Assembly (NCBI GenBank): GCA_913051185.1
Contig: CAJXBM010000004.1
Coordinates: 1-62,711 of the forward strand
Direction: 5' to 3'
Source of the DNA: an uncultured Chloroflexota bacterium
GTDB taxonomy: Bacteria; Chloroflexota; Dehalococcoidia; UBA2979
DNA length: 62,711 bases
Made by a program: the position numbers and the translations under genes. The notes beneath the pieces are model-generated. The model did no database searches and had not been told where the DNA came from. It saw only the letters and a program-made list of their open reading frames with translations. Below, piece after piece: positions 38,670 to 47,395 of this stretch (positions are counted from its first letter, which is position 1; every line of letters begins with the position of its first letter).

Positions 38670-39116
38670 TTAGCCATCGTTCATGAATAGATTCAACTGT
38701 TCAACAACGAAGTCATATGTATCCTGAGCAATTACCAAAGCCCGATCTCCGTCTTCAGATGAATAAGATTCAAAGGGCACCCCTGCCGGAAGAACACTCG
38801 GATACCGTGCACCCAAGTAATGCTTATCAAGCTGCACCGCACTTGATTTAATCAAATCAAAAGATGGCTCAAATGCCATGGCATCTTCACATAAGTCAGC
38901 CAAACCATGACCCCACAACATCTCGACGCCTCGCGCGTATAAGTATGCTGAAACCGCCTTTTCAGCAGTTTGATGCGATAAAAAACATGACAACGCATAC
39001 ATCCCAGACTGCATCAGAAAACGAGCTGAATCAAGATCATGGCCCGACTGGGTAAGCCATCTTTCAGCTTCTCGTCTACGCCGCCGGTTGATGCTTTCAC
39101 TTGAATTAATCGACAT
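38670..39116 (-). CDS. HEPN domain protein (COG2250-type)
   Basis: WLTQSGHDL, CFLSHQTAEKA, GH.L, LDKHYLGARYP; start ATG 39116 (track TTG 39122). Confidence 0.85.
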   Translation of the reverse strand: MSINSSESINRRRRREAERWLTQSGHDLDSARFLMQSGMYALSCFLSHQTAEKAVSAYLYARGVEMLWGHGLADLCEDAMAFEPSFDLIKSSAVQLDKHYLGARYPSVLPAGVPFESYSSEDGDRALVIAQDTYDFVVEQLNLFMNDG

Positions 39117-39127
39117 CCACAAACATC

Positions 39128-39466
39128 CTAACCATAGATCAATTCGCCGGCCTTCAGTGTCAGTTCTATAAATCGATCTTCATACTCGCCCTGACTAAAT
39201 TCGTCAGGGTTGTACACATGAAAATGAGTTTCAACTTGCGGCCGCAAATGATCTGTGAAAAAGTCTGCCCTTTTCGGATACGGATCAGTGGTATCTCTCA
39301 CGATTAAAAATTCTAATGGCGTATCAAAATCAACATAGCCCCGTGAAAAGTCACCAGCTAACCACACTTTGATGAGGCCCAATGAAGGGAATTCTCCCCT
39401 AACACGGTCTAGCTCTTCAGAAAGCAAAGTCTTCCTATGCTGAGAAAAACCAATCATTATTGGCAT
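39128..39466 (-). CDS. Minimal nucleotidyltransferase (MNT)-fold protein with degenerate active site
   Basis: KVWLAGDFSRG..TPLEFLIV..HVYNPDEF..GELIYG aligns with the MNT pattern GSxARG..SDxD..DxxVYTPEE..GxxLY. Confidence 0.7.
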   Translation of the reverse strand: MPIMIGFSQHRKTLLSEELDRVRGEFPSLGLIKVWLAGDFSRGYVDFDTPLEFLIVRDTTDPYPKRADFFTDHLRPQVETHFHVYNPDEFSQGEYEDRFIELTLKAGELIYG

Positions 39467-39470
39467 AGAT

Positions 39471-40490
39471 TCAGACCGTAAATAAATTTGGCACTTTGGG
39501 TAAATCCATAACTTCTTCTGAAGCTAGTCGATATGCCTCTTTCTTATACACCTGAACTCGGTGACAACCATAATCTCCTACAAACAATCTGCCATCCTGA
39601 GTTCTAACTGAACTTGGTGACTTAAATCTCTTCGTGGGCTCGAGATCAGCCATATCACGAAGCCGCAATACCTTCAGATTAGTTAGTATATAAATTCGTC
39701 CCATTTCACCAAGTGTTGAGTCTCCAATGAACTCTTCCACATGTCTTCCATTCCGATCGAACTGCAAAACTCTACCATTGCCTCGGTCTACCACGTATAC
39801 ATCTCCATCAGCATCAACTGATATACCTGCTGGACGAGATAATTGTCCGGGACCTGATCCCGATGAGCCTATTACCTCTAATACCACTCCAGATGAATCA
39901 AAAACTTGAACTCGATCATTGCGCCAATCCGCAACGACTATGTTCCCTTCTGGCGTGACTGAAATACCCCAAGGCATATTAAATTGACCGGGCTGGTCAC
40001 CAAAATCTCCAAAGGACGATATATATTCTCCCTTGGAAGAGAATTTCTGAATTCGATGATTTTGCGTGTCTGACACCAATATATTTCCATCAGAGTCAAA
40101 GACCATATGAGATGGCCTATTTAGTTGACCAGGCTCTGACCCGTATTCTCCCCAGCGGCCAATCTCTTCACCATCTGTCTTTAGCATCGTAATATTATGA
40201 GCGCCTTCGTCTGATATATATAAGAGACCATCTTGGTCCTTGGTTATTCCAGCGGGCCAAGTCCAGCCGCCACCGATTCCACCCAGATCTTTATCATCCC
40301 AACTTACAGTCCTAATACTGCCACCAACATCAAATCGACCTAGACAGTAAACCTCATTATTAGGACCAACTTCTATATCAATCGGATACCAAGTTATCCT
40401 GCGCATCCCTAATGTTTTTTCATACGGAAAACCAGCCCTGAGTAAAACCTCATAATCCGCAGTATCTGTCTTCTTCGTATCTGTAGTCAT
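39471..40490 (-). CDS. NHL-repeat beta-propeller protein
   Basis: Repeated G.F..P.GI..D..G.I.V.D..N.RVQ.F units (PGQLNRP, PGQFNMP, PGQLSRP). Confidence 0.9.
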   Translation of the reverse strand: MTTDTKKTDTADYEVLLRAGFPYEKTLGMRRITWYPIDIEVGPNNEVYCLGRFDVGGSIRTVSWDDKDLGGIGGGWTWPAGITKDQDGLLYISDEGAHNITMLKTDGEEIGRWGEYGSEPGQLNRPSHMVFDSDGNILVSDTQNHRIQKFSSKGEYISSFGDFGDQPGQFNMPWGISVTPEGNIVVADWRNDRVQVFDSSGVVLEVIGSSGSGPGQLSRPAGISVDADGDVYVVDRGNGRVLQFDRNGRHVEEFIGDSTLGEMGRIYILTNLKVLRLRDMADLEPTKRFKSPSSVRTQDGRLFVGDYGCHRVQVYKKEAYRLASEEVMDLPKVPNLFTV

Positions 40491-40516
40491 ATCTTTTTCT
40501 CGCTTTGTTCAGTAAT

Positions 40517-41665
40517 CTAAACCAACATTGTTGTGCTGTACGGTCTGATTTGCTCGTACGTACCGCCGACAATTGGCTGAGCATCCATACCCATCCACTG
40601 CTCAAGAATGCTCGTGTATACGCTTCGATAATCGATGGTGTGAGTTAAGTCTTCCCCATATAACCAATCCTTTGGATCAAGTGATGGATATTCCGCATAC
40701 AAACCTCCGGATACATGGTCGCCAATGATATACGCCCCGCCGCCAGTGCCATGATCGGTTCCGGAGCCATTATCCATTATCCGTCTTCCAAATTCAGTGA
40801 ATACTAAAATAGTCACCTCTTCTGAGGCATCGTGATTTCTAATATCGGTCATGAAATCTGAAATAGCTTCGGTTAGTTCAGTCAATAAACGTGGGTGAAC
40901 TTCATTCTCTAAGGAGTGATAGTCATATCCACCATGCTGCGTATAGAACACTCGGGTACCCATGCCCGCAGTATGAACACGCGCCACGTCACGAAGCGAC
41001 TGAGCAATCGGATTACTGGCATACTCCACATCACTGGAATACCGAGAAGGGACATCTGCGAGCATATCTGCGCCACGCAGAATGTCTCGCCCTGTCTGAG
41101 CCAGGTAATCATTTACCATTCCATTACCTACTGCTGGGCTATACATTCGCTTAAAAATATCGAGGTTGGCTGCCCGTTCATCAGCTTGTTCAATCTTTGT
41201 CATTAAGCCAAATTCATCGAGGTTGCCGACGGATGTAGCCGTTACCCCTGGAGCGACTAACGCCCTTGGGAGACCTCTTCCAAACGAAACAGCAGTCAAC
41301 GGGTTTTCTGAGTTAGGATCTAATTCGCGGGTCACCTTACCTAACCAGCCCTCGGTTGCTACCTTTTCAGGTTCGCAGGTGTGCATAATATCCATTGCGC
41401 GAAAGTGTGAACGGCTCGCGTTCTCATAGCCAACACCTTGGATAACTGCCACATTACCGGCATTATAAAGTTCAGATAGAGCACCTGCAGACGGATGCCA
41501 CGCGAGACGATCGTCAAGAGAAATAGTAGACTCCGCTGCCACCGAGACCGTGGGTCGCCAGTCATAAATACGACCATCCGTATACGGAATAAGCGTATTC
41601 ATAAAGTCCAAACCACCTGATAGCTGAATTACAACTAAAACTGGATCTTTCTTCTTAGTCGTCAT
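40517..41665 (-). CDS. DUF1501 family protein (no Tat/Sec signal)
   Basis: LVVIQLSGG.D..NT, RSHF, GGYDYH, FTEFGRR..NGSGTDHG, DYRSVY; AAGGAG before ATG 41665. Confidence 0.88.
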   Translation of the reverse strand: MTTKKKDPVLVVIQLSGGLDFMNTLIPYTDGRIYDWRPTVSVAAESTISLDDRLAWHPSAGALSELYNAGNVAVIQGVGYENASRSHFRAMDIMHTCEPEKVATEGWLGKVTRELDPNSENPLTAVSFGRGLPRALVAPGVTATSVGNLDEFGLMTKIEQADERAANLDIFKRMYSPAVGNGMVNDYLAQTGRDILRGADMLADVPSRYSSDVEYASNPIAQSLRDVARVHTAGMGTRVFYTQHGGYDYHSLENEVHPRLLTELTEAISDFMTDIRNHDASEEVTILVFTEFGRRIMDNGSGTDHGTGGGAYIIGDHVSGGLYAEYPSLDPKDWLYGEDLTHTIDYRSVYTSILEQWMGMDAQPIVGGTYEQIRPYSTTMLV

Positions 41666-41692
41666 CGGTATCTCCTTCGTCAAATACTTTTT

Positions 41693-43117
41693 TTAGGCGA
41701 ACTGGTACTCAGGCGCTGAAACGATCAGCTGCAAAAGTCTAATAATTTGTTTTTGGCTTTCCGCAATATTCGCATCCGTATCAAACTGGAGCTGTCCACC
41801 CTGACTCGCCAGATCAACAAGTGCCGAATGTGTATCACCACTAATTTCCACATGGCCAGTGAGATTCAAACACAAATTTACCAAATCTTCCGGTGATAAA
41901 TTATCGCCTTGTGACTCAATTCTGGACAGAATGCTACTCACACCAGGAAGCGAAACCTCCGCGACCTGATTCACCACAAAATTTACTCTTTCGGTCAGTG
42001 TGCCGGCATCGAGCCACTCTTTTCCTGTGTGCCAACCCTCAACCGTAGGTGGATTCAGTAATTGTTGCCCCATGGCAGTAGTTGCGGCGTTCAATGAAGC
42101 AAGCATAGGGTGAGGCGTTTCCGGTAAACCTGACAGCACTAGCGCTCCAGCAACAAATTCTGCTGGACTCTTTATTTTCTTGAAGCGGGCATTCTTGAAC
42201 CAATTTGCATTCAACAGGGTTCGCATGACCTCGGTTAAGTCGCCGTCCGACTCCAAGAACACATTGGTGAGTTCATCAATTGCCTGCTGGTCCTGTGGTG
42301 GTGTAATACTCCACGCAGGGACTTGTGGTTCATCAGCTACGAAGAAATTGTACAAATGGCGTGATATAAAACGAGCGCAGGCCTCCTGCTTCACTATAAT
42401 ATCGATAATATCTTCCCCATTGAAGTTACCCTTCTCTCCGAGAAATTCCTTCTCCGAATTATCGTGTTGTTCCGGACGATAAATAAATTCCGCAGCATAT
42501 CCGCCGTAAGGATAAAGAGGTATTGGTTGTTTAAAAGTCCACCCAGTAAATGCTCGAGCAGCCATTTTGACGTCGGTTTCGCTATACGTACCTATGCCCA
42601 TCGAAAATAACTCTAATAGCTCTCGCCCGTAGTTTTCGTTAACCGCACCGTCCCTACTCTCAGAATTATCTAGCCAATAAATCATGTTTGGATCTTTAGA
42701 AAGAGCTAACAAGATATCGCGCATATTACCAAGGCCAACTTCTCTAAACATCTCCATGTGTTGCACTATTGCCGGCCCATTCTCAGCCTTATACCATGCC
42801 GTCGCGAACACATGATGCCAAAACAGTGCCATTTTTTCCATTAATGGGCGATCACTCTGCGCAAGGTTATACATCCATCGGGCGGCCCAAGTAGCGCCAG
42901 TATCCGGACTTGCTGATTGTGGCAGGTATCTGTCCAATAGATCTACATCTGGGTCAGCATACAGATTCGGGCTCAGCAGGTCTTCTACCAGCTGCTCGTA
43001 CGATTTCTCTGAAAGAGATTCAAGTCTGTCGCGACTGGCACCCACACCAACTCGGCGCATCAAATGCCCAATAAGGGCGATTCTCTCATCTGTAGATATC
43101 GAAATCTCGGTTGTCAT
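41693..43117 (-). CDS. DUF1800 family protein (no signal peptide)
   Basis: HLMRR.G.G, EKMALFWH..FAT, P.M..WLDN, NENYGRELLELFSMG, YSETDV, ARAFTGW, SAPEYQ; GGAG before ATG 43117. Confidence 0.9.
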   Translation of the reverse strand: MTTEISISTDERIALIGHLMRRVGVGASRDRLESLSEKSYEQLVEDLLSPNLYADPDVDLLDRYLPQSASPDTGATWAARWMYNLAQSDRPLMEKMALFWHHVFATAWYKAENGPAIVQHMEMFREVGLGNMRDILLALSKDPNMIYWLDNSESRDGAVNENYGRELLELFSMGIGTYSETDVKMAARAFTGWTFKQPIPLYPYGGYAAEFIYRPEQHDNSEKEFLGEKGNFNGEDIIDIIVKQEACARFISRHLYNFFVADEPQVPAWSITPPQDQQAIDELTNVFLESDGDLTEVMRTLLNANWFKNARFKKIKSPAEFVAGALVLSGLPETPHPMLASLNAATTAMGQQLLNPPTVEGWHTGKEWLDAGTLTERVNFVVNQVAEVSLPGVSSILSRIESQGDNLSPEDLVNLCLNLTGHVEISGDTHSALVDLASQGGQLQFDTDANIAESQKQIIRLLQLIVSAPEYQFA

Positions 43118-43208
43118 CGGGTCACTCCAACTATATTTTTTTAGTAAATAAATCGTCAACTTACAGTGTTATAACACATTTCGACCACCTTCGAAAAGGT
43201 GTATTTTT

Positions 43209-46867: not shown

Positions 46868-47395
46868 CTACGAAGGCTTTGCAATCAAACGAGCGATTGC
46901 AAATTCCATTGACTGCCCCCATGGCATCTCAACTTCAGTACTCTCAATTTGATAACTCGAACCAAGTTCATCCAAAAGTCGCCAAGCTGCAGTAACCTCA
47001 GCAATTGCGTGATGATCACAACATGATTGAATAGTCTGCTGCTTAAGTGCTCGATGAAACTCGACGCTTTCGCTAGAACTACCACATGGACACGTATATA
47101 AAATTTCTGCACCATAATCGGTCGAAATAATCACAGGCTTGGGATCATACTTGGTGCCAGAAGATCCTGCGAGTGGTGCAAGCGCTGCGGGTCCCAAAGA
47201 GTAACCAGCCTCCCCCAAGCGAGTTTGCAACCGATCAAGTATTAGGCCTTGCTCGAGAGAAAGTGAAAATGAGCGCCTATCGGCATCTCCAGCTAGAAAT
47301 CTGGCACCCTCAATGGCATCCGTGGTTGCTTTGATAGTCGCGATGCAATGTTCACAAGTGATATCGGGACTGAATAAGGTAATTTCAACCGCCAT
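46868..47395 (-). CDS. CopZ-like HMA protein with unrecognised Cys/His-containing C-terminal domain
   Basis: DITCEHC HMA motif; tail contains YTCPCG and SCCDHH; 9 nt upstream of copA. Confidence 0.7.
   Translation of the reverse strand: MAVEITLFSPDITCEHCIATIKATTDAIEGARFLAGDADRRSFSLSLEQGLILDRLQTRLGEAGYSLGPAALAPLAGSSGTKYDPKPVIISTDYGAEILYTCPCGSSSESVEFHRALKQQTIQSCCDHHAIAEVTAAWRLLDELGSSYQIESTEVEMPWGQSMEFAIARLIAKPS

Follow-up and report, generated by a model that had tools for sequence, protein, structure and literature searches.

A degenerate MNT/HEPN gene pair is kept beside a leaderless DUF1800-DUF1501-NHL gene trio in Chloroflexota and may serve it as an accessory

Five minus-strand genes of an uncultured Chloroflexota bacterium (class Dehalococcoidia), located on the 62,711-nucleotide (nt) stretch of contig CAJXBM010000004.1 analysed here (positions 1 to 62,711; the window), code for a DUF1800 protein, a DUF1501 protein, an NHL-repeat protein, a small protein resembling minimal nucleotidyltransferases (MNT-like) and a HEPN-domain protein. 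Since the five genes are kept together in about 80 marine Chloroflexota species, the MNT/HEPN pair has probably become fixed as an accessory to the enzyme module encoded by the other three genes (the trio). The explanation that we favour, our confidence in it being about even, is that MNT and HEPN form a heteromer, domesticated and non-toxic, which assists a cytoplasmic DUF1800-DUF1501-NHL hydrolase module as an accessory in binding, regulation or assembly.

An open reading frame (ORF) check of the window returned the five genes as described in the initial annotation, all on the minus strand and, when the ATG starts are taken, separated by the gaps of 27, 26, 4 and 11 nt given there:

41693-43117, minus strand: DUF1800 protein, 474 amino acids from ATG 43117 (a TTG further upstream, at 43159, is also possible)
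40517-41683, minus strand: DUF1501 protein, 388 amino acids, TTG start (alternative ATG at 41665)
39471-40490, minus strand: NHL-repeat beta-propeller protein, 339 amino acids
39128-39466, minus strand: MNT-like protein, 112 amino acids
38670-39122, minus strand: HEPN-domain protein, 148-150 amino acids, TTG start (alternative ATG at 39116)

Four of the proteins are matched by Pfam: DUF1800 by PF08811 (E=4.8e-99), DUF1501 by PF07394 (E=2.4e-21), NHL with four scored repeats (E=4.8e-37) and HEPN by PF05168 (E=1e-22). The start of the DUF1800 gene at ATG 43117 is supported by a conserved GGAG at 43125-43128, 7 nt ahead of it. A sequence scan returned zero minus-strand promoter-like or terminator-like sites in the four intergenic gaps, including the gap between the NHL and MNT-like genes, to which the initial annotation had drawn attention.

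The arrangement was followed in three sets of genomes, all of them metagenome-assembled: (a) 60 relatives of the window's genome; (b) one genome per species (GTDB), scanned with the HEPN alignment, the best 80 of 159 relatives being analysed; and (c) an even sample of 251 genomes across the phylum, searched with DUF1501 and without bias toward the pair. A homologue of the MNT-like gene was found in 14 of the 60 genomes of set (a), in the order DUF1800-DUF1501-NHL-MNT-HEPN on one strand in 14/14, and the genomes with a full-length NHL orthologue were exactly those with the MNT-like gene (15 out of 61 in that comparison). The loci of set (b) all carry Chloroflexota labels, mostly Dehalococcoidia with SAR202 among them. 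The MNT-like gene lies directly upstream of the HEPN gene in 80/80, usually overlapping with it (median -8 nt), the trio adjoins the pair in 79/80 and the colinear five-gene order is kept in 75/80, which, in genomes of other species, is far beyond chance. Four loci (L052, L054, L114 and L116) have the pair inverted, convergent to the trio yet adjacent to it, and these fall in two separate clades, which indicates two independent inversions.

The order is kept in genomes whose DUF1501 is only ~60-65% identical to that of the window, and it outlasts the turnover of the flanking genes. In the window the cluster is flanked by two acyl-CoA dehydrogenases, a short-chain dehydrogenase/reductase (SDR) and a CopA-type ATPase; in set (a), these flanks are shared only within the window's genus. 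When the 2,293 flanking ORFs of the 80 loci were clustered, no family was present in more than 24/80 loci, and the commonest families (SDR, GNAT, GH88, signal peptidase and others) are mutually unrelated. The 20 commonest clusters, which were annotated, include neither a Fur-type regulator nor a BtuCDF-type importer. The central proposal of the initial annotation, that the pair goes together with the trio and did not come to lie there by random insertion, is borne out by this gene-neighbourhood search across Chloroflexota, in which the order survives the replacement of its neighbours and the adjacency survives the two inversions.

Set (c) contained nine close leaderless trios, of which the two inside the pair-bearing clade carry the pair and the seven outside it do not. 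The 80-locus set was selected via the HEPN subfamily, and it is therefore the two smaller, unbiased samples that support the statement that trios of the clade carry the pair. No consistent gene takes the place of the pair after NHL in the pair-less loci, where glyoxalase-like, aminotransferase, amidase and exported lactonase genes were seen. The MNT family comprises ~400 clusters at 90% identity in a collection of 5.8 billion proteins, and its named members there are all Chloroflexota "hypothetical proteins".

In a tree of 85 DUF1501 sequences the trios with the pair group in a single clade, with a support of 96 in the Shimodaira-Hasegawa-like approximate likelihood ratio test (SH-aLRT), and every outgroup is a leaderless trio that lacks the pair. 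Two state changes suffice to account for the presence of the pair on this tree, where shuffled labels need 12.3 on average. Such a distribution is compatible with a single gain at the clade's base and a single loss, the pair having been acquired once by the trio lineage. The loss lies in genome G018, where the trio alone was duplicated (four extra copies), giving five DUF1800-DUF1501-NHL trios and one MNT/HEPN pair (L030-L033, contigs C10 and C12). Because the copies L030 and L033 are identical and IS3-type transposase-like ORFs are present near L033, the duplication seems to be recent. The association of pair and trio put forward by the initial annotation holds, as a conserved trait, within one clade; it is not intrinsic to the trio, which is without the pair outside this clade and in four paralogues.

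The divergence of the pair tracks that of the trio. The protein distances of the two are correlated (Mantel r = 0.77-0.85, p=0.001) and the mean divergence of MNT (0.47) and HEPN (0.40) compares with that of NHL (0.44) and DUF1800 (0.39). The ratios of nonsynonymous to synonymous substitution rates (dN/dS), 0.02-0.30 for MNT and 0.03-0.12 for HEPN, lie in the same range as those of the trio genes, and both genes of the pair are under purifying selection.

The HEPN protein is a PF05168 member of the Class II type, a pattern defined by a missing RX4HXY motif and a conserved tyrosine, for which no biochemical study exists (Yao et al., 2020; PMC7641770). Its profile matches the solved structures of TT1696 (1UFB), 1WOL and TM0613 (1O3U) at E-values of 1e-25 to 4e-23, the sacsin HEPN domain being a more distant solved relative. 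Over the 63 members used for column counts, R106 is present in 63/63, the position five residues further on is leucine (55), isoleucine (7) or methionine (1) and never histidine, and Y107 is present in 61/63, the window protein reading R-Y-P-S-V-L-P. The Rx4-6H ribonuclease (RNase) motif is thus absent from 63/63 members. The same alignment holds four further conserved residues, C46 (62/63), C78 (63/63), H50 and H72 (53/63 each), of which H50 and C78 set the subfamily apart from 1UFB, 1WOL and 1O3U; the four residues could make up a metal or redox site.

These counts bear on the example put forward in the initial annotation, a sensor or hydrolase complex with an RNase-type output, which we take in the form of an active toxin-antitoxin or defence system in which the trio senses and HEPN gives the RNase output. 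The order MNT-then-HEPN with overlapping ORFs is typical of HEPN/MNT toxin-antitoxin modules, and the nearest solved sequences of the NHL protein include RNA-binding TRIM-NHL domains. Nevertheless, neither the RNase output nor the toxin-antitoxin framing is supported by the motifs, since HEPN is without Rx4-6H and the MNT-like protein without GSX10DXD (see below), and no defence model of PADLOC-DB v2 was matched by MNT, HEPN or DUF1501; the sole hits there were a repeat-level one of NHL to PD-T4-6 (E=7.5e-4) and one of DUF1800 at E=0.033. Furthermore, a single origin, strict vertical inheritance, low dN/dS and the lack of a mobile-element or defence-island context are unlike what is seen for toxin-antitoxin and defence genes. 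We consider such an active system highly improbable, and rejected both an active toxin-antitoxin module with RNase output, on the motif counts, vertical inheritance and low dN/dS, and a known anti-phage defence system, in view of the missing significant PADLOC match. Nor is the pair a selfish element, since the 1.8-Mb genome of the window has no further HEPN and no further MNT pair, PADLOC gave no hits for the two proteins and no mobile-element genes were found near the cluster in the Pfam annotation of the window, as the initial annotation had also noticed for the surroundings of the pair.

The MNT-like protein of the window has no Pfam match at E<=0.01, and its family profile found no meaningful match among PDB sequences. 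We assign it to the minimal nucleotidyltransferase fold on the basis of its AlphaFold (AF2) model and of weak matches of some family members to NTP_transf_2 and DUF6932; PF01909 is weakly matched by 6/79 members (best E 0.0097). The model has a mean predicted local distance difference test score (pLDDT) of 89.7 and shows the beta-helix-beta arrangement of minimal nucleotidyltransferases, its strand-helix-strand elements agreeing with the register of the motif described below. The top Foldseek matches in the PDB are HalB, HI0073, MntA and the MNT antitoxin 8xeo, with template-modelling (TM) scores up to 0.60/0.66 and probabilities of 0.97-1.0; with E-values no better than 2e-3 to 2e-2, the structural support is at the level of the fold.

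In this register the GSX10DXD motif of nucleotidyltransferases is read in the window protein as G38-D39-X10-P50-L51-E52, with the spacing kept exactly, and in the family as G[D/E/A]X10[E/P]X[E/D]. Among the 79 members G38 is invariant and position 39 is aspartate (61), glutamate (10), alanine (6), glycine (1) or asparagine (1), never serine, so the GS dipeptide is absent in 79/79 and the place of its serine is usually taken by an acidic residue. Position 50 is glutamate in 31, proline in 21 and another residue in the rest (E or D in 36/79), proline being found in the window's own genus, position 52 is glutamate in 57 and aspartate in 21 (acidic in 78/79), and position 48 is acidic in 72/79. 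The strand expected to carry the third carboxylate (residues 80-85) reads T-R-F-x-V-Y, with no acidic residue. The best-conserved block of the protein lies elsewhere, RRADF[F/W]xxHLRP at residues 65-76. Class II MNTs normally keep GSX10DXD (PMC7641770), and the degenerate motif is therefore a derived feature of the window's MNT family. A fusion of the MNT-like and HEPN proteins was also considered and rejected: the long open frames reflect upstream read-through, and a stop codon ends 80/80 MNT ORFs.

The same columns could be read as those of an active, modified nucleotidyltransferase in which MNT (D39/E50/E52) and HEPN form a heterodimer like kanamycin nucleotidyltransferase and nucleotidylate Tyr107 of HEPN, a trio protein or a small molecule of the pathway. 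The nucleotidyltransferase fold is retained, as are the carboxylate at position 52, the acidic residues at position 48 and, in somewhat less than half of the members, those at position 50. The R-Y pair of HEPN is also kept, the same tyrosine having been noted for Class II HEPNs (PMC7641770), and HI0073/HI0074 is described as a two-protein nucleotidyltransferase (title of PDB 1no5). However, no member of the family has the GS that holds the triphosphate, an acidic residue usually standing in its place; the strand of the third carboxylate is devoid of acidic residues, and the first carboxylate is a proline in the window's genus. In MntA, replacement of GS by AT or of DxD by ExE abolishes the transfer of AMP (Yao et al., 2020; PMC7641770). 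Taken together, these observations make an active enzyme improbable in our view.

The three proteins with which the pair is linked appear to form a soluble module. Adjacent PF08811 and PF07394 genes, in this order, are found in the window and in all loci with enough flank. DUF1800 has no signal peptide and is predicted to be mostly alpha-helical with a small beta insert (AF2 pLDDT 82, predicted TM score (pTM) 0.87); it has no sequence relative in the PDB and its model no fold neighbour among 350,542 PDB chains (best TM 0.15). As a confident model without a structural neighbour, DUF1800 may have a fold that is so far unsolved. NHL has no signal peptide either. Its nearest solved sequences are the NHL domains of TRIM71, Thin, TRIM2/3 and Brat, the PknD sensor and PAL, a resemblance at the level of the repeats, and in NCBIfam only a ScyF-like match below the cut-off was obtained.

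DUF1501 is the most conserved gene of the five, and no PDB sequence relative was found for it, profile search included. Its invariant residues are D26, S92-H93, D254/H256 and D310-H311, which we take to fit the metal/nucleophile constellation of the alkaline-phosphatase superfamily (an aspartate near the N-terminus, a serine, threonine or cysteine nucleophile, and D-H pairs). DUF1501 would then probably act on phospho- or sulfo-esters, as a metal-dependent hydrolase of that superfamily. The protein starts with MTKEIPMTTKKKDPVLVVIQLSGG, leaving ~12 residues before the first strand (VLVVIQLSGG), and has no twin-arginine translocation (Tat) leader. Three exported Chloroflexota DUF1501 homologues (35-37% identical) carry such leaders of 40-50 residues (TRRDFLK, DRRGFLK and LSRRTLIK); their genes are preceded by a DUF1800 gene and accompanied by no NHL, MNT or HEPN gene. 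Since DUF1501 is leaderless, the trio is presumably located in the cytoplasm, and the label "cytoplasmic" given to the system in the initial annotation is a reasonable one.

Four kinds of described system come close to the five genes or to parts of them. The pair resembles Class II HEPN/MNT modules (PF05168 and PF01909; Makarova et al., 2009, PMC2701414; PMC7641770), with which it shares the small MNT gene upstream of, and usually overlapping with, a PF05168 HEPN gene, the HEPN protein without RX4HXY but with the R-Y pair, the minimal nucleotidyltransferase fold of MNT, and TT1696, 1WOL and TM0613 as the closest solved HEPNs. It differs from them in an MNT that falls below Pfam PF01909, has no GS (79/79), has E/P-x-E/D in place of DxD and has lost the third carboxylate, as well as in being single-copy, vertically inherited and placed beside a metabolic-looking operon, whereas Class II pairs are scattered and multi-copy in thermophiles. 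Class I modules (type VII HepT/MntA) have the two folds and the gene order in common with the window's pair, and the MNT model is similar to MntA, but the HEPN of the window belongs to PF05168 and not to PF01934/PF08780, and the pair has neither the RX4HXY RNase/AMPylation motif nor GSX10DXD; toxin activity and its neutralisation by AMPylation are therefore not expected here. HI0073/HI0074 and enzymes of the kanamycin nucleotidyltransferase type likewise combine a nucleotidyltransferase-fold subunit with a helical HEPN-like one, as separate genes or domains, and HI0073 is among the best structural matches of the MNT-like model, although their catalytic motif is not preserved in the window MNT. 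Finally, the Tat-exported DUF1800-DUF1501 pairs (PF08811 and PF07394) share families and gene order with the trio, the Chloroflexota homologues being 31-37% identical; the window form differs in being leaderless and in having the NHL gene always next, followed in one clade by MNT/HEPN.

We favour the view of the pair as a non-enzymatic accessory. The core module is a leaderless version of the widespread DUF1800-DUF1501 pair with an added NHL beta-propeller, and the ancestor of one trio clade gained, once, a Class II-type MNT/HEPN pair. The chemistry of HEPN/MNT toxin-antitoxin systems has gone from this pair, HEPN being without the RNase motif and MNT without GS and part of DxD, yet both proteins stay intact, translationally coupled to each other and subject to purifying selection, and they co-diverge with the trio. 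The heteromer would most likely bind a ligand or a protein and serve the trio in regulation, gating or assembly. A more specific version, which we hold only tentatively and think rather unlikely, is that the catalytically stripped pair, of toxin-antitoxin descent, works as the dedicated gatekeeper for an enzyme complex once located in the periplasm and since moved to the cytoplasm. By binding a nucleotide-like ligand or one of the trio subunits, the MNT/HEPN heteromer would keep the DUF1501 hydrolase switched off as long as substrate is lacking.

Several points weigh against an accessory role. Pair-less trios are conserved in the outgroup lineages and in the four paralogous copies of G018; the trio works there without the pair, which is therefore dispensable for its basic function. 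In one locus of the 80 (L113), the sole one with the pair away from a trio, a different hydrolase adjoins the pair and no trio is present within 3 kb. Adjacency can last by inheritance alone where rearrangement is rare. The acidic cluster of MNT (D/E39, D/E48 and E/D52) is conserved, so a residual metal-dependent activity is possible, and the loss of function was judged only against Class I, Class II being without known biochemistry. Gene content, the kept order, the single origin, selection and the loss of motifs are shown by the data, while the physical interaction of the pair with the trio, the location in the cytoplasm, the hydrolase chemistry and the accessory role are what we infer.

The pair-less trios and L113 equally feed an alternative in which there is linkage without shared function: a Class II pair with its own cellular role would have landed once downstream of the trio and been kept there by vertical inheritance and operon inertia. 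The gap between NHL and MNT reaches 250-359 nt in some lineages and the four inverted loci have pair and trio on opposite strands, so that the pair can be transcribed separately; moreover, Class II pairs have no established function (PMC7641770). On the other side, the adjacency has outlasted the complete replacement of both flanks as well as the two independent inversions, and from a neutral hitch-hiker one would expect more than a single loss or move among 80 species. The family of ~400 clusters is essentially restricted to the trio context, and the pair is retained by small, streamlined genomes of 1.3-1.9 Mb. We regard this alternative as the main rival of the accessory role but judge it unlikely.

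To our knowledge, DUF1800 and DUF1501 are large, widespread families without known function or solved structure, and a full-text literature search returned no paper that characterises either of them or links one to HEPN/MNT. Nor was a publication found on the leaderless form with the NHL gene next and, in one clade, MNT/HEPN after it. Among the toxin-antitoxin-like modules of prokaryotes, HEPN/MNT is considered the most abundant. A pair of Class II descent that occurs in single copy, has long been inherited vertically, is under purifying selection and is tied to one operon argues for possible non-toxin roles of such pairs, for which the trio offers a defined set of partners in which to look. 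The leaderless trio, being a soluble cytoplasmic form, should also ease the expression and assay of DUF1800 and DUF1501. If the pair were indeed a gatekeeper, it would be the first case of a HEPN/MNT module built into a metabolic machine as a fixed subunit, and would give an experimental entry to the large families DUF1800 and DUF1501. SAR202-type marine Dehalococcoidia belong to the host group, and because these are abundant in the deep ocean the conserved module is of ecological interest.

The region between the cluster and the upstream acyl-CoA dehydrogenase gene contains several features:

43118-43208, minus strand: upstream region of the cluster, 91 nt
43186-43201, minus strand: hairpin after the upstream acyl-CoA dehydrogenase gene (sequence scan)
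43166-43177, minus strand: perfect 12-bp palindrome GTGTTATAACAC, between the hairpin and the promoter-like site
43159-43130, minus strand: promoter-like TTGACG-18-TATAGT (sequence scan of the upstream region)

The palindrome occurs a single time in the window and is kept in three close relatives, the next clade being without it; an operator function is conceivable.

Some further observations concern the surroundings of the cluster and individual loci. The CopA-type ATPase gene is immediately preceded by an ORF of 175 amino acids (46868-47395) for which Pfam gave no match at E<=0.01. On the 4.8-kb contig of L113 (L113:1494-3845) the pair follows a 494-amino-acid protein with a metal-hydrolase-like motif (GNTHIHYDE) and a membrane permease. 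Genome G215, of 1.3 Mb and from another family, has a very divergent five-gene copy (L120, G215:C8) with HEPN 38% and MNT 36% identical to those of the window, in which the DUF1501 match crosses one in-frame TAG, together with a second, pair-less trio (L125, G215:C7). In six loci of one clade (L064, L067, L073, L078, L094 and L103), two genes of the same strand come after HEPN, first an SDR gene and next a second, different NHL-repeat gene.

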